From a virus (Duplodnaviria; Heunggongvirae; Uroviricota; Caudoviricetes), in the IMG/VR virus record IMGVR_UViG_2671180501_000010: 48,383 nt of DNA; one strand, written 5' to 3'. How positions within the stretch are numbered: the stretch's first letter is position 1; every line of letters begins with the position of its first letter. This document shows positions 213-46,831 of the stretch, piece after piece. Made by a program: the position numbers and the translations under genes. The notes below the pieces were generated by a model. The model was not told where the DNA came from. It worked only from the letters and a program-made list of their open reading frames with translations, and searched no databases.

Positions 213-797
213 TTACTCCCTGACAGGGTTCGTAGGCCACTCAATATCAGGTGCAGTTGACGTATCAACACGGTTCAGCAATACCCGATACTTTTTCCAT
301 GCTTCCAGCAACGAGATTTCTTCCTCCGTTGCAATTTCCAGATCTGCAGCATCCTGAAGCGGCGCAATATGCTCACTGGCTACCTGCATCAGGTTGTTTT
401 TTGTTTCTTCCGCCTCCCGGATCCGGAACAGTTTTTCTGCTTCCGTATCCTTCACCCAGGCTGTGCCGTTCCACTTCTGAAACTCCCCTTCCGGCGATAA
501 CCAGGTAACATTTTCCGGTAACGGACCGAGTTCAGAAATAAATAACGCGTCGCCGGAAGCCACGTCATAAACCGTTTTACCCCGATGATCTTCAACGAGA
601 TGCCACGATGACTCATCACTGTTGAAAACAGCCACGAAGCCAGCCGGAATATCTGGCGGTGCAATATCGGTACTGTTTGCTGGCAGACCTGTATGAGGCG
701 GAATATATGCATCACCTTCACCAATAAATTCATTAGTTCCGGCCAGCAGATTATAAATTTTTATGGTCCGTGGTTGTTCACTCATTCTGAATGCCAT
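213..797 (-). CDS. tfaR: Tail fibre assembly protein (Tfa family)
   Basis: 194-aa ORF; translation matches recalled Rac TfaR / lambda Tfa sequence; start overlaps stop of upstream stf (ATGA). Confidence 0.85.
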
Positions 798-3689: not shown

Positions 3690-4249
3690 TCAGAACTTAT
3701 AACCGACACCCACGATGAAACCGTCAGTGCGCCAGTCGCCACTGCCGGAGCCTTCATAAGCAATATCAATGGCCACGGATTCGGTCGGGTTAAACTGCAC
3801 GCCAGCTCCCCACGCCAGAGACGTGTTGCTGTGGCGACCGTCATCACTTCCGGTCAGCACGTCGTGCGTTTTCCCCTTGTTGTCAGTTACGCGGAGATAA
3901 TCCCCGGAGAAAGTCGACACACGGCTGTAAGCCACACCCGCCATCGCATACGCGCTGAACCATTCATTCACGCGCACAGACGGCCCCGCCATTACGCTGA
4001 ACCAGCGGTTACGAACGGAATCTTCATGCCAGCGGGTATCGCTGTAACGGGTCAGCTGGCGATTCTTGTCTCCTGCATAGCTGAATGACGTCACCAGCCC
4101 CAGCGTATCCGTAAACTCATAACGGTATTTCACGTTAATCCCGTTCAGATCATCACTGCCGGGAACGTTGGTCCGGGCATGAAGATACCCCGCGCTCAGC
4201 GTGGACTGATGTTCAGACGCCCATGCAGGCGCACCGGATACGGCCAGGC
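3690..4249 (-). CDS. lomR: Lom-like outer-membrane beta-barrel protein; 5' end lies in the N-masked run
   Basis: Translation (…LAVSGAPAWASEHQSTLSAGYLHARTNVPGSDDLNGINVKYRYEF…GVGYKF) matches recalled lambda Lom; C-terminal aromatic residue; reading frame continues upstream into Ns starting at 4250. Confidence 0.8.
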
Positions 4250-30261: not shown

Positions 30262-30789
30262 ACAGCGAATCAGATCAAATAAAACGCACATTTGTTAACA
30301 TTTACACAAAGTCTGCGTGGGATATTCTGAAAGAATATCCATAATGTGGAGAGAATCTATTGAAGTGCATGGTGCCGGGTGCCTCCCGGTGAACAAAATG
30401 TTCGTGATACCTGTCGGCGACAGAAAAGGTTAATGGTATCACCCCACCGCACAGGGGGATTCACCATGCAGGAGTTTTCTTAGCAAACTCACTGCGCGCC
30501 CGGCAACTCCCAACCACATAAAATGCGGAGTTTGTGGCATTTATGCATATAACTCGCAGGAATTATCTTAAAAAACTGATGTCGATCCGGATTAAAAAGA
30601 AGCAGGTCATCATCAGATGACTGGAAAAAAGGAAAACAAAAAATACTCATCATACAGTTTTGATTGCAGGGATGAGCCTGCTATGCACAATATGCAGAAT
30701 ATAAGCAAGATAAAAATATGCAGGCATATTATTTCGGATCTTGTTATTAACACAACCTTTTTAATAATCATTTGGCATACAATAAACCA

Positions 30790-31789: not shown

Positions 31790-32076
31790 AAATGACCTTT
31801 CTTTCTCCAGATTTCTTGTGTGCGAAAAACCCCTTCAGCATGCATCAGGCGCAATTCTTCTTTGGTGTAATCGCTGGTTTTTACCCGCCCGTCGATTAGA
31901 TCGTGGCATGAGCTACAGGCTATCGCCGCCTGCATATCATGTGGTTTTGTCGCTGTTCCGCACGTCCCCGCCAGCCTGTAATGCGCCAGCACAGAGGTTT
32001 CGGGATTGTGATTGCAGTAGCCAGGGATTCTGATCTGGCACATCTGGCCTTTAGCCGCTTTACGTAAATTCACCAT
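31786..32076 (-). CDS. YbcO-like protein (DUF1364, putative Zn-binding nuclease)
   Basis: 96-aa ORF MVNLRKAAKGQMCQIRIPGYCNHNPETSVLAHYRLAG…CHDLIDGR, matching recalled DLP12 YbcO including the Cys cluster. Confidence 0.7.
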   Translation of the reverse strand: MVNLRKAAKGQMCQIRIPGYCNHNPETSVLAHYRLAGTCGTATKPHDMQAAIACSSCHDLIDGRVKTSDYTKEELRLMHAEGVFRTQEIWRKKGHL

Positions 32077-32675
32077 TACGCAAACTCCAGTAGTTGTGCG
32101 GCCACATTTTCAACTTCCTCCTGAGAGGAGAATTTACGGAACAGAATCCAGTTCCACAGCACATTCAGTACAGATTTATAAACCTGCTGAAACTCGACTT
32201 CGTCCATATTCGCAAAAGCGATGGATTTTGCCCGACGCCCACGGCTACCGTCCGGATAAATATGCTCGGTGTAAAATCCGGCCTGAATGGTTACCCACTC
32301 GCGGAAAGCCTCAAACGACTTTAGCAACGCCGTATCCCGGGTTCTACGAGTCGCAACGGTGTTAAGGTATTGCTCTGCGGCATCACTCAGGGCTGGCGTG
32401 TGTTCCCGACCAACTGATTCGCACAGGTAATCAACGAAACCAGACAGCAGTTCTCGTTCGCGAGGCGTGATCGCCCCACCGACCGGAGTCCAGTAATCGA
32501 ATCCCAGTTGCAGGAGTTTGAAAAAACGCTTGTGGAATGCGTAGTTACGCACACGCTTAAAGTCTGCGTGTATCCACTCACCTATTTTGATTTGATGCAG
32601 AAAATCGCAACTCTCCGGCGTCGCCGGGAGAAGTAAACCAGAAGAGGTTTGTTTGACCAGTTGTATATGCGCCAT
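32076..32675 (-). CDS. nin-region protein, possibly DUF1367-like
   Basis: 199-aa ORF whose stop overlaps the ybcO-like start; family name is a weak recollection. Confidence 0.45.
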   Translation of the reverse strand: MAHIQLVKQTSSGLLLPATPESCDFLHQIKIGEWIHADFKRVRNYAFHKRFFKLLQLGFDYWTPVGGAITPRERELLSGFVDYLCESVGREHTPALSDAAEQYLNTVATRRTRDTALLKSFEAFREWVTIQAGFYTEHIYPDGSRGRRAKSIAFANMDEVEFQQVYKSVLNVLWNWILFRKFSSQEEVENVAAQLLEFA

Positions 32676-33433
32676 TTCTCAATCTCTCGATGGCGCAGCG
32701 CAGCAGATGCCAGTTGTTCAGGCTGACGAATAAAGTATAAATAAACTGGCTATGGTGTAAAGCCCCACATAGCATGAACAAACACTACATATCAAATAGC
32801 TGGTACAAGGATAGAAATACGACACTTATTATTAAAAACGATTAGATAAATTACATTTTAATGTTATGCAAAAGTTCTTTTTTATCATAACATTTCAATA
32901 AAAGCATTACAGATGCAATCATCCCGTCATCATCAATTATTTAAGGTGGTTAAACATGGAAAATAACAAGTTCGCACATCTCGCTCCTTTTTTATCCGTA
33001 ATCCTTTTCGCTTGTTGTTTTATATGGGCATTATTTTTATAAAGTAGCCACATGATAAGTTGCTGGAATCATATTTCCCACTCAAGTCATTAACATTTGA
33101 TAAGATATATCTAAAAGGACGCCTTTACATTATTTATGCGTATATAATTTATTTATATACACAGTAAAGGTATCCTGGGAAAATATTTATCGTTAAAAAA
33201 TACATCATAAATAATTAAGCTGAAATTTCAGAACACAACTAATACACACAATAAGGTTCAGTAACAGTAATCTATGTGGACTACATCGAGATTTTTTGAT
33301 TAAACTTTAATAACTTATTCCTAACACACAGAATGCATAAACTAAAAGTAAAACAAATAGTTATACGAAAAACAACCATATTTATTCTATCTTCTCCTCT
33401 AATCAACATATCAATTATGTGTTTCATAACAGC

Positions 33434-33466
33434 TTGACATAACCCTCCAAAAGATGCATTTTTAAT
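33434..33466 (+). promoter_or_regulatory. Candidate promoter for the YeaR-like gene (consensus -35, weak -10)
   Basis: Perfect TTGACA at 33434-33439; possible -10-like elements CATTTT / TTTAAT downstream; GGAGGAGG RBS at 33476-33483. Confidence 0.3.
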
Positions 33467-33488
33467 GCATGTTTTGGAGGAGGTGGTT

Positions 33489-33827
33489 ATGACACACAAG
33501 AGAATTCCTAAAGATTGGGTAATCAAACGCTCAACTCCGTTCTTCACAAAAGAGAACGTACCTTCAGCGTTATTAACACATCATAATACAGCAGCAGGTG
33601 TTTTTGGGCAGTTGTGCGTAATGGAAGGCACTGTAACATATTATGGTTTTACTGATGAGAATGCTACTGAACCGGAGATAAAAGTAGTCATTAATGCTGG
33701 CGCTTTTGCAACAAGCCCACCACAATACTGGCACCGTGTTGAACTAAGCGATGATGCTCAGTTTAATATTAACTTTTGGGTCGCTCCAGACTTTTCGGGC
33801 GAAAAAGTCTATAGCACCAAAAAATAG
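33489..33827 (+). CDS. YeaR-like protein (DUF1971; TehB N-terminal-domain-like)
   Basis: ATG 33489 after GGAGGAGG RBS; MTHKRIPKDWVIKRSTPFFTKENVPSALL…GTVTYYGFTDENATEPEIKVVINAGAFATSPPQYWHRVELSDDAQFNINFWVAPD parallels recalled E. coli YeaR. Confidence 0.75.
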   Translation: MTHKRIPKDWVIKRSTPFFTKENVPSALLTHHNTAAGVFGQLCVMEGTVTYYGFTDENATEPEIKVVINAGAFATSPPQYWHRVELSDDAQFNINFWVAPDFSGEKVYSTKK

Positions 33828-33856
33828 ATGATCATATTAAAAATGCTTTAACAGTC

Positions 33857-33895
33857 AGACCCGGCAGGGCTATCCCCGACGGGTCTCATTTTTGT
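33857..33895 (+). terminator. Rho-independent terminator after the YeaR-like gene
   Basis: agacccg…cgggtct imperfect stem with inner GGG/CCC pairing, followed by CATTTTT. Confidence 0.45.
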
Positions 33896-34447
33896 AAATA
33901 TATTGGTTCTACATTGACAGGAGACTTCAACCATAAGAAGTAATCTGAATACTTGAGCAATAAATTTACTTAAGATTAATGAGCGCACCTTGCCGGACAA
34001 AGATAAACCAAGGTAACACCTTTTTTCTAGCCAGTATGTAATCAATCAGAAAGCCGCTCCATAAGAACAACAGCAAGACAATAAATTGCCATTACAGCCG
34101 CAATAGCCAGCGCACATTTGAGAACCAGCACGACAACCCCCTGTATTAGACGCACACCAGTCCTGATAAATATGAGGCTGTCTCGTCAGTGATTCAATAC
34201 AACTATTGGGTATAGTTTCTGTGATTTTATTCTGTAGAAATGGAACACAACAACCAGTCACCACCAGCACTTCCTTAAATGCTCTAAGTCAGAAACAAGC
34301 CAACATTTTAGTCCGCTTTGAGCGATCTGCAGACATTGCTAGCAGCCTTCTGTGTGAATTCTCAGGGAGCAGGTCGGCATAGCATCACGTTGAGGCTCTT
34401 ACCCTACTTGTTCACACCAACCCTAACTCCACAGACTGATTCATAAA

Positions 34448-35449
34448 TTAGTAATCTGCGTGTTTCGCACTTTTCAGAAATGCTTTCATATTTTCATTAG
34501 GTCGCTCAATTTCGAAGTTACTTCCATATAACTCTTGTAATTTTGGCCATAACTTACTTAATAACCCTCTCCTGCGATAAAATGGATGTATCCAAACGGT
34601 AGATAGGTACGGAGAATTTGCATTTGAATTGTTTATTGTGACCAGCCCAACTAAACATTGTCGATAACCACTATTATCCATTGATTGTATTTCTTCGACG
34701 AATGGATACGCGATTACATCAGTCCAACCATGATCGGTTGTATCCCATTGCATTCCGTCATGACATTCCTTCGACTGATAGCGGCGTAAAGCTACACACG
34801 CGAGCTTTTGCCAATCTGGAGAATTAATTGTGATCTCTTCATCGTATGACGCGCCTATTGGAGCGGGTATTGGTCTGATTAATCCAGCATGGCATTCATC
34901 ATAGAACTTCATGTTTCCCTCAGAAACGTTGTGTACGTTGGGTTGCTCCATGTGTGCGCCATTCAAAAATAGCTCTGATAGTAGTGTATCTACACTGTAA
35001 TCTTTATTGATTATTGTCGGCTTAGAGTTTTTCTTATTAAGGCCGCGAGTAACGATTTTTTGATCAATGTTAACAACATGGAATAATCCGTCGGGGAGGC
35101 TAGCGAACCACGATGGGGCATCGGACCAGAATAGCATGCCTTTTGTACTTCTTAAGAGTTTAATTAAGTTAATACAAGCTTCTTCACTAGTCTTGCCGTT
35201 GATGCGAAGTATGTTAGGACTAAAGTAATATTCATCCATATCAGGGAATGCAGCTTCGCAAAACTCCTGTACATAATTTAGCACCTGGATTCTACAGAGA
35301 TCATCATAGCTGGTAATAACTAAGGGGGTATCTTCATTACTATTATGATTATCAATAATGCAATCTATAGCGAGACTTACTGCTTTGCGTATCACTTCAG
35401 TTGAATCTAACGACTCTAAAAATTTTGTCTTTCGTGTGCGAATATCCAT
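34448..35449 (-). CDS. Hypothetical protein (333 aa) with GNAT-acetyltransferase-like C-terminal region; second gene of a two-gene cargo operon
   Basis: ATG 35449 lies 15 nt after the stop of the upstream gene; C-terminal YLSTVWIHPFYRRRGLLSKLW resembles GNAT motif A; N-terminal 230 aa unassigned; about 35% GC. Confidence 0.7.
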   Translation of the reverse strand: MDIRTRKTKFLESLDSTEVIRKAVSLAIDCIIDNHNSNEDTPLVITSYDDLCRIQVLNYVQEFCEAAFPDMDEYYFSPNILRINGKTSEEACINLIKLLRSTKGMLFWSDAPSWFASLPDGLFHVVNIDQKIVTRGLNKKNSKPTIINKDYSVDTLLSELFLNGAHMEQPNVHNVSEGNMKFYDECHAGLIRPIPAPIGASYDEEITINSPDWQKLACVALRRYQSKECHDGMQWDTTDHGWTDVIAYPFVEEIQSMDNSGYRQCLVGLVTINNSNANSPYLSTVWIHPFYRRRGLLSKLWPKLQELYGSNFEIERPNENMKAFLKSAKHADY

Positions 35450-35464
35450 GTATGACCTGCGCTA

Positions 35465-36487
35465 TTAAAATTCATGAATGAACGGTTTGTCATCTGGTTG
35501 CAAAATGGTGGTTTTATTCGTTGCTACATTTAAACTGTTGTAGAGCATAATTGCCAGGTTCGATGCATTTTCAATCAGCGTTTCAAGATCCTGGTCTGTA
35601 ATCACTACGAGGTTCCCTTCTTTATCCTTTCCACCACGATGCACTAAGTGATTTCGATTGAGGGTTGCCAATTCAATAGCTTCTATCGGACAGTCTTTTT
35701 GTACTTTTATATCGAATGTAGCTTCATAGCGGTCGATTACCTTTTTAGTGCTATGCCAGCTTGCACTGATCAAGTGTTCCTTGATTGACCTGATTAGCTC
35801 TCCCCTAATTTTCTCGATGGGTTCACCCTTGAAAGGCAACGCAGCAATATCTTTGCTTACTTTAAATTCAGTCTTACCTTTTTCTATACAATTGGCTATG
35901 TAGACATCATCTTTCTCTATAGAATTAATGAATAGCTCAACATAAAGCGTTTCCAAAGCTGTAATAACATTCGTGTAGAGCAAACTAAGCAAGTGGTTTT
36001 TTTGCTGTTGTTCAGTTTTATCTTTTGCAAGTTTTTTTATTTTATCGATATTATCAATGAATTTTAAATACGGATTACCGGAAGACGTTACAGCGTCGTA
36101 GATATCATCATCGTACCAATCATCTATATTATTTGAGTTTCCAGACCAGTCAAAACATTGTGTTTGTAATTCATCTACTAATTCCTCAATATACTCAGAT
36201 TTAACATATTGACCGAAGATGGATTGTAGTTCTTCGCTCGCATCATACGGCCCGCCATATATGTAAGCATAGCCACCTTCTCTACTTTCATACGGACAAG
36301 CATTTGCCGGATCTTCAAAGTTTTCAAAGAACCAGTTTTTCATTACTTCGAGTTGATCTTTTTTGCTTATGTATTTTAAAGATTTTAGTGGAACTTTCTT
36401 TCCATTAACCTCGAAAACAATTTTCACGATGTAACGCTCCCTTGTATCAATTGCGCAACTATTATACCACAGCGAAATACAGGGCAT
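35465..36487 (-). CDS. Hypothetical protein (340 aa) with C-terminal R-N-x3-H (HEPN-like) motif; first gene of a two-gene cargo operon
   Basis: ATG 36487 preceded by AAGGAGG RBS (track ORF extends to 36556 but lacks an RBS); motif LNRNHLVHRGG at residues 277-287; AT-rich; candidate TTGACA -35 upstream. Confidence 0.7.
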   Translation of the reverse strand: MPCISLWYNSCAIDTRERYIVKIVFEVNGKKVPLKSLKYISKKDQLEVMKNWFFENFEDPANACPYESREGGYAYIYGGPYDASEELQSIFGQYVKSEYIEELVDELQTQCFDWSGNSNNIDDWYDDDIYDAVTSSGNPYLKFIDNIDKIKKLAKDKTEQQQKNHLLSLLYTNVITALETLYVELFINSIEKDDVYIANCIEKGKTEFKVSKDIAALPFKGEPIEKIRGELIRSIKEHLISASWHSTKKVIDRYEATFDIKVQKDCPIEAIELATLNRNHLVHRGGKDKEGNLVVITDQDLETLIENASNLAIMLYNSLNVATNKTTILQPDDKPFIHEF

Positions 36488-36625
36488 AACCTGCCTCCTT
36501 AAACTAACATACCATGAGCCAGCAATGTCCGCTATTGGCACAAAGCGGACAACCACGCTAGCTCTCCCCTGTGCCAGAAAAATGTCAATTTACATATGAA
36601 CTAATGCTCTTTGATCTAGTAACGT

Positions 36626-46455: not shown

Positions 46456-46650
46456 ATGAGATATGACAATGTTAAACCATGTCCATTTTGTGGTTGTCCA
46501 TCAGTAACGGTGAAAGCCATTTCAGGATATTACCGAGCGAAGTGTAACGGATGCGAATCCCGAACCGGTTATGGTGGAAGTGAAAAAGAAGCACTCGAAC
46601 GATGAAATAAACGAACCACTGGAAATAATAATGGAGGTGTTCATGTATAA
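46456..46650 (+). pseudogene. ralR: Restriction alleviation protein RalR/Lar, interrupted by an in-frame TGA at codon 50
   Basis: Reads MRYDNVKPCPFCGCPSVTVKAISGYYRAKCNGCESRTGYGGSEKEALER-TGA-NKRTTGNNNGGVHV-TAA; the final TAA overlaps the ydaC ATG as in the intact arrangement; the recalled intact protein has W at the TGA position. Confidence 0.6.
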
Positions 46651-46831
46651 AATTACCGCCACTATTGAAAAGGAAGGTGGCACTCCTACTAACTGGACAA
46701 GATATTCAAAATCTAAACTAACGAAATCAGAATGCGAAAAAATGCTCTCAGGTAAAAAAGAAGCAGGCGTTTCCAGAGAGCAGAAAGTAAAACTGATAAA
46801 TTTTAATTGCGAGAAACTTCAGTCCTCGTGA
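46643..46831 (+). CDS. ydaC: YdaC-like small protein (62 aa)
   Basis: ATG 46643 after GGAGGTG; MYKITATIEKEGGTPTNWTRYSKSKLTKSECEKMLSGKKEAGVSREQKVKLINFNCEKLQSS. Confidence 0.6.
   Translation: MYKITATIEKEGGTPTNWTRYSKSKLTKSECEKMLSGKKEAGVSREQKVKLINFNCEKLQSS

Follow-up and report, generated by a model that had tools for sequence, protein, structure and literature searches.

The window, a stretch of 48,383 nucleotides, is a Rac-like lambdoid E. coli prophage with trkG, recE/recT, kilR and sieB homologues and a DUF1133/Q-like antiterminator gene. Within it, Rfam matches above the gathering score were obtained for the RalA antitoxin sRNA of the Rac ralR/ralA system (46649-46827, minus strand), for the STnc100 sRNA downstream of the Q-like gene (30313-30499, minus strand) and for IS009 (256-454, minus strand). 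A first-pass annotation had placed a plus-strand gene at 33489-33827, with a TTGACA -35 hexamer, a ribosome-binding site and a downstream terminator, transcribed opposite to its surroundings. The gene, a 112-aa ORF with a Pfam DUF1971 match, and all three signals were found there, and the neighbours on both sides are on the minus strand (a DUF1367 gene at 32076-32675, and genes at 34448-35449 and 35465-36556). The features of the locus are as follows.

33044-33433, no strand: AT-rich upstream part of the module, ORF-free, ~27-33% GC (from composition)
33434-33439, plus strand: -35 hexamer TTGACA (read from the sequence)
33439-33490, plus strand: fold-back containing the predicted operator, an inverted repeat with 17-nt arms, 16/17 complementary
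33451-33473, no strand: predicted NsrR-type operator AAGATGCATTTTTAATGCATGTT, 23 bp, an 11-1-11 inverted repeat (from the NsrR matrix)
33457-33462, plus strand: putative -10 CATTTT, 17 bp past the -35 (from promoter alignment with orthologues)
33461-33466, plus strand: alternative -10 TTTAAT, spacing 21 bp, TATAAT in other alleles
33476-33483, plus strand: ribosome-binding site GGAGGAGG, 5 nt before the ATG
33489-33827, plus strand: DUF1971 gene, 112 aa, RefSeq WP_000149055.1, PHROG 34268
33857-33894, plus strand: intrinsic terminator, hairpin at 33857-33886 followed by CATTTTTG at 33887-33894 (from folding)

The gene ends with a TAG codon (33825-33827), and the terminator begins 30 nt past this stop. 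An alternative start at ATG 33465, which would give a product of 120 aa, was rejected: it lacks a Shine-Dalgarno (SD) sequence and lies inside the operator, and the N-termini of orthologues favour 33489. Conservation of the signals was followed in 13 promoter alleles found among 43 phage and E. coli copies. The TTGACA hexamer is unchanged in 13 of 13, and chromosomal orthologues of the Kluyvera/Leclercia group have TTTACA or TTTACG at the same register; the GGAG of the SD is also kept in the orthologues in the promoter alignment. The putative -10, CATTTT, matches the consensus at three of six positions, and chromosomal orthologues read TATTTT there. Most phage alleles do contain a perfect TATAAT, although its distance from the -35 is 21 bp. 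With a weak -10 at the proper spacing and a TATAAT at 21 bp, the geometry of the promoter is uncertain. The terminator stem, AGACCCG..CGGGTCT with an inner GGG/CCC, lies in a 73-nt gene tail with a minimum free energy (MFE) of -19.4 kcal/mol (z = -2.3 against shuffles). In allele L085 the inner stem carries a compensatory change from GGG/CCC to GAG/CTC (G>A / C>T), and allele L083 has a different hairpin and T-run at the same position. A consensus promoter and terminator scan made no plus-strand call at the DUF1971 gene; this was not read as absence, because the -10 is only CATTTT and the terminator stem is mismatched. Rfam returned nothing relevant near the gene at the gathering score or at E<=1, a mir-616 match (E 0.13) being due to chance, and PADLOC matched neither the gene nor the two genes next to it.

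The protein matches the DUF1971 profile (Pfam PF09313) over positions 1-80 of 80, with an E value of 2.3e-26 and a score of 92 bits where the cut-off is 23.1, a similarity that is far from negligible. RefSeq labels the product "DUF1971 domain-containing protein" or, loosely, "TehB family protein". Identity as TehB was rejected: the TehB model NF008992 scored 49 bits against a cut-off of 303 and was matched only at positions 11-106 of 289, and the protein, at 112 aa, has no methyltransferase domain. The first-pass description of a YeaR/DUF1971-like protein resembling the N-terminal domain of TehB was thus right about the family and about the TehB N-terminal domain, but a close parallel to chromosomal YeaR was overstated, since alignment gave 41% identity to K-12 YeaR (45/111). 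A role in tellurite tolerance, also raised there, is unlikely, as the methyltransferase domain is missing and a UPEC yeaR mutant has no tellurite phenotype, yeaR affecting peroxide tolerance instead (PMC4959519).

Much closer relatives were found elsewhere. The phage protein aligns end to end with the Aliivibrio fischeri structure 3DL3 at ~80% identity (E 3.5e-59), which gives its fold directly; 3DL3 is named 'tellurite resistance protein B', a TehB name given by domain similarity only. The structure of YeaR itself, 3BB6, was the second-best solved structure (E 1.6e-24). Chromosomal genes of Kluyvera, Leclercia, Citrobacter, Klebsiella and Raoultella encode proteins 76-82% identical to the phage protein, and a Salmonella gene product is 79% identical over 112 aa. 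The Salmonella gene lies beside nhaB-dsbB, with NhaB and DsbB confirmed as its neighbours, and we take it to be STM1808 from the position of that gene on the LT2 map. The two proteins are of the same length and share the same His/His/Glu positions. His32, Trp81-His82 and Glu85 of the phage protein align with YeaR (3BB6) and with the H. influenzae TehB N-domain (3M70), and H32, W81-H82 and E85 are invariant in 16 members of the subfamily; STM1808 is reportedly zinc-binding, with details described for His32 and His82. On these alignments the phage gene is a member of the STM1808/3DL3 subfamily of DUF1971 and is not YeaR-like.

To score candidate NsrR sites, a position weight matrix built from 26 distinct 11-1-11 sites of E. 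coli CFT073 (ChIP-seq; Table 4 of PMC5320621) was used. The palindrome AAGATGCATTTTTAATGCATGTT scored 27.8 bits, compared with 13.8 bits for the runner-up in the 48-kb window and 19.95 bits for the best site among 100 shuffled windows. Only ytfE (31.3 bits) among the 26 published sites outscores it, and the hmp site scores 20.3 bits. The predicted operator overlaps the putative spacer and -10 as well as the predicted start site, near 33468-33472, and ends 15 nt before the ATG. This near-consensus operator is the strongest regulatory signal of the locus, and it had escaped the first-pass annotation, which was otherwise sound on the promoter, ribosome-binding site and terminator.

A scan of 80 orthologue loci of ~8 kb, from different species, revealed that the arrangement is widespread in enterobacteria. 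Every enterobacterial locus had its top NsrR-type match 15-27 nt before the DUF1971 ATG, at 12-30 bits; all but four of these boxes scored 24-30 bits, and second matches reached 14.4 bits at most. Citrobacter, Klebsiella and Salmonella orthologues have a strong box near the ATG, that of Salmonella being less than 30 nt from it. In contrast, most of the Vibrio, Aliivibrio and Shewanella loci in the scan have no NsrR-type box upstream. Two layouts were seen. In Salmonella and Citrobacter the box lies 25-27 nt from the ATG, right after the dsbB terminator, whereas the phage has the Kluyvera/Leclercia layout, with the box 15-18 nt from the ATG and a conserved -35. In this layout the -35, box, SD and ATG of the phage alleles are colinear with those of chromosomal genes from Kluyvera, the Leclercia group, Pseudescherichia, Silvania and Enterobacter, the alignment reading CTT(T/G)AC, 17 bp, (T/C)ATTTT, box over spacer and -10, GGAG, ATG. 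Because the phage and chromosomal promoter regions are colinear, the promoter, predicted operator and gene form an ancestral unit that moved as one piece. Homology between them ends just upstream of the -35.

Just before the -35 in the Kluyvera, Leclercia and Pseudescherichia group, a Fur-box-like 19-mer was also observed (13-17/19 matches; up to 17/19 to GATAATGATAATCATTATC), lying ~64-66 nt before the ATG in loci L004, L006, L014, L016 and others (locus positions ~3916-3936). This suggests dual control of the Kluyvera-group orthologues by Fur and NsrR. The best match to a Fur box in the phage copy is 11/19, at chance level; the phage copy has lost the Fur box or never had one.

In all 13 promoter alleles the -35, right half-site and SD are preserved, and the boxes score 17.7-28.6 bits. 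The left half-site varies among phage alleles, and the allele of the window is among the best scoring. In the commonest sampled allele the left half-site is degraded (AACACGCATTT, 20.7 bits); the three common alleles score 27.8, 26.6 and 20.7 bits, and the lowest score, 17.7 bits, belongs to a single allele. As the left half-site is eroded in common alleles, the predicted repression could, in some carriers, be leaky or relaxed. Some sites bound by NsrR are not regulated by it, and some known targets were missed by ChIP (PMC5320621). With the matrix score and the conservation of the box taken together, we consider it likely that NsrR controls the DUF1971 gene. We found no published report on NsrR wiring of the phage DUF1971 gene or on its kinship to STM1808.

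The palindrome could instead be an RNA or DNA hairpin, or the site of another phage or host protein, with expression constitutive or under phage control. Its inverted repeat extends far past the 23-mer, to the SD and AUG: through ATAACC/GGTTAT and CCTCC/GGAGG, sequence that follows the -35 pairs with the SD and with the beginning of the AUG. The corresponding RNA has an MFE of -23.1 kcal/mol, with stabilities of 11 to 27 kcal/mol across the 13 alleles. Besides the variation of the left half-sites, two apparent compensatory changes occur in the outer part (CCTCC/GGAGG to CCTCA/TGAGG, and CCTCA/TGATG to CATCA/TGATG). Covariation is weak, however, with 2 pairs altered on both sides and 6 of 500 shuffles reaching the observed percentage of paired positions, and RNAalifold did not recover the extended structure. 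The inner 23 bp, which contain two ATGCAT motifs, beat 25 of the 26 published sites on the NsrR matrix, and chromosomal orthologues retain the box without the outer extension. Moreover, since the -35 is conserved and the predicted start site lies inside the repeat, the left arm would not be transcribed from the gene's own promoter. A palindrome that serves some purpose other than NsrR binding is therefore unlikely. Only an RNA begun upstream of the gene's own start could adopt the fold-back, which would bury the SD and AUG. As a lead only, the fold-back may protect the gene against read-through transcription, as is known for the IS10 transposase.

A second alternative, essentially that of the first-pass annotation, is that the gene is a phage-borne copy of yeaR that works and is regulated like yeaR-yoaG, that is, activated by nitrate and NarL and repressed by NsrR. 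E. coli YeaR has the same Pfam domain and the same size, its structure is the second-best match noted above, and yeaR too has an NsrR site (PMC5320621, Table 4); it belongs to the NsrR regulon and is regulated by NarL, and nitrosative stress induces it (PMC5320621, PMC4959519). The 41% identity to YeaR is nevertheless to be set against 79-82% to the STM1808/Kluyvera group. The phage gene is not followed by a yoaG-like (DUF1869) gene or by any family-matching plus-strand ORF, and the promoter layouts differ, the operator lying 15 nt from the ATG in the phage and ~70 nt in yeaR. No convincing NarL 7-2-7 site was found in the phage promoter, the best match being 10/14 with a crude pattern that also scores 10/14 on the yeaR promoter itself. 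Synonymous sites, finally, are saturated relative to every sampled chromosomal homologue. A yeaR copy is improbable on these grounds.

The gene occupies a defined slot in the prophage. All copies examined have it between the DUF1367 gene, at the NinB position, and a variable segment that ends at a DUF977 gene. Depending on the prophage, this segment holds three hypothetical genes, Hok/Gef and KilA-N genes, QueH or, as in the window, two genes. Sister prophages with the same flanks (e.g. L125) have no DUF1971 gene and carry the IteAS anti-phage system instead. Comparison places the homology breakpoints at 33043 on the left (against L125) and at 33828, ~34180 or 34325-34359 on the right. With a GC content of 41%, the gene lies within an island of 27-43% GC (~32700-36600) between phage cores of ~50%. 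The upstream stretch 33044-33433 travels with the gene: 462 genomes have it whole, compared with 464 for the gene, and related prophages without the gene do not have it. Because related prophages fill the slot with other cargo, the DUF1971 gene is almost certainly a moron, and the first-pass view of an independently transcribed one agrees with its monocistronic arrangement, its own promoter-like and terminator-like signals and its place in a low-GC variable cargo slot.

The 750 bp that separate the DUF1367 gene from the moron promoter (32676-33430) have 27-33% GC and no credible ORF. The half nearer DUF1367 is common to ~370 further genomes at 76-78% identity, and a good minus-strand promoter-like site (TTTACA, 16 bp, TATACT; 32761-32734) lies just upstream of DUF1367.

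Of 5426 complete E. coli genomes, 464 contain the DUF1971 gene (~8.5%, about one in twelve); strain LD39-1 is a natural carrier. When the Salmonella gene was used as a distant-mode query, 457 E. coli genomes were returned, each matching at a single place with 60-80% identity, and no STM1808-type copy closer than the prophage one was found in the 5426 genomes; the subfamily therefore seems to exist in E. coli only as the prophage copy. Nucleotide identity to the sampled chromosomal homologues is 69-72%, and recent capture from a sampled chromosome was rejected. Since synonymous sites are saturated against all chromosomal orthologues, the capture is old.

The gene could also be a passenger that currently does nothing, a piece of silenced AT-rich cargo carried along in a recombination hotspot. 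The flanking DNA, at 28% GC, is of a sort often silenced, and Rac-like prophages are often defective (IS2 in rrrD, truncations). Against this, the ORF is intact in 43 of 43 phage and E. coli copies, with few amino-acid variants, and dN/dS among phage alleles is 0.03-0.27, albeit from small counts. The promoter, SD and terminator are conserved, and the terminator contains the compensatory change of L085. These patterns indicate that the gene is under purifying selection and make a functionless passenger highly improbable.

The reading that we prefer, and hold to be reasonably probable, is that the gene is a single-gene moron of the STM1808 type, repressed by NsrR and derepressed by NO. The near-perfect NsrR site over the promoter implies that the gene is probably on only when the lysogen meets NO. 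Transcription would proceed from the gene's own sigma-70 promoter (TTGACA, 17 bp, CATTTT). In an unstressed lysogen, holo-NsrR would sit on the operator and block RNA polymerase. NO, whether from macrophages or from nitrate/nitrite respiration, would nitrosylate the NsrR cluster, and NsrR would leave; NO is known to destroy DNA binding by NsrR (PMC5320621, introduction). A monocistronic mRNA with a short leader would then be made, translated from a strong SD, and would stop at the terminator, short of the opposing phage genes. The product would add STM1808-type activity and thereby nitrosative-stress tolerance, to which the Salmonella orthologue is reported to contribute. We infer NsrR binding in vivo, induction by NO, the exact start site and a benefit to the lysogen. 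The chances that the DUF1971 gene gives a measurable NO phenotype are, in our estimate, about even. An extension of the scheme, in which the NO-fired promoter acts head-on to the leftward phage transcription that has to pass through here on its way to DUF1367-YbcO-Q and makes late-gene activation (lysis) NO-sensitive, with the fold-back keeping production of the protein strictly dependent on NsrR, is remote; if true, the prophage would use the host NO sensor to protect its host and delay lysis in the inflamed gut or macrophage.

Links between DUF1971 genes and NO or Fe-S stress in other bacteria were also observed. In Neptunomonas, a DUF1971 gene lies between a ytfE-like gene (ScdA_N and hemerythrin), a gene for an Rrf2-family regulator and sufB, and the intergenic NsrR-like boxes score 23-24 bits; in Neptunomonas qingdaonensis (L077, 1900-7400) the cluster also holds an Fe-S protein gene and sufBC. 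In Parendozoicomonas (L070, 3300-4350), a methyltransferase-DUF1971 gene pair lies behind two NsrR-like boxes of ~22 bits and resembles the fused H. influenzae TehB split into two genes. Homologues of tehB have been predicted in the NsrR regulons of enterobacteria and Photobacterium (Rodionov et al., PMC1274295). STM1808 is placed in the NsrR regulon, with a role in virulence, in the passage of PMC7527575 that cites Karlinsey et al. 2012.

The individual elements of the proposed arrangement are already known: the gene was annotated as DUF1971, and morons, NsrR boxes and NsrR-regulated DUF1971 genes have been described, hence no new principle is involved. Phage morons that belong to host regulons form a general class, which includes bor and lom of lambda and sodCI of Gifsy-2. 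Like classic morons, the phage DUF1971 gene has its own promoter and terminator, a deviant composition and a predicted benefit for the lysogen. It is set apart from them by its predicted control by NsrR and by a cassette that is homologous to a chromosomal regulon member of other enterobacteria. It likewise differs from STM1808 in location, the Salmonella gene adjoining dsbB and the phage gene lying in a prophage cargo slot. By way of this moron, an STM1808-type gene is present in ~8.5% of complete E. coli genomes, under the predicted control of the host NO sensor. If confirmed, this would amount to lysogenic conversion for nitrosative-stress tolerance, in which a promoter-operator-gene unit of a host regulon has moved into a species lacking it, and it would provide a function-linked handle on DUF1971, a family with solved structures.

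Several minor observations concern the surrounding cargo. Convergent with the DUF1971 gene is an unannotated small ORF (34042-34131, minus strand) of 29 codons, encoding a hydrophobic peptide (MLVLKCALAIAAVMAIYCLAVVLMERLSD) from a GTG start. Its SD is GGGGG in the window and AGGAGG in other alleles. Alleles at 84% nucleotide identity differ by 8 synonymous and 3 conservative changes, and for this reason it looks coding. It had no Pfam or NCBIfam match, and also occurs, mostly unannotated, in phages Tritos, Evi, mEp460_ev081 and HannyBb. Because a Hok/Gef gene fills the same spot in another allele, the small ORF may encode a small membrane toxin.

The two minus-strand cargo genes at 34448-36556 encode a 333-aa protein with a weak GNAT-like C-terminus (E 9e-4; PHROG 16994) and a 363-aa protein with a weak match to HEPN/RES N-terminal domain 1 (E 2e-4; PHROG 17908). 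PADLOC gave no match for the pair. Since sister prophages carry IteAS, Hok and KilA-N, or QueH there, the pair is a candidate defence or toxin module.

A further region of variation was noted between the Q-like and lysis genes. Two loci, from E. coli E10 and GF47 (L084/L085, 2305-2458), contain tRNA-Gly and tRNA-Thr genes there, and other prophages and the present window have TolA-like ORFs or other inserts. Because the inserts differ among prophages, this interval appears to be a second variable slot.
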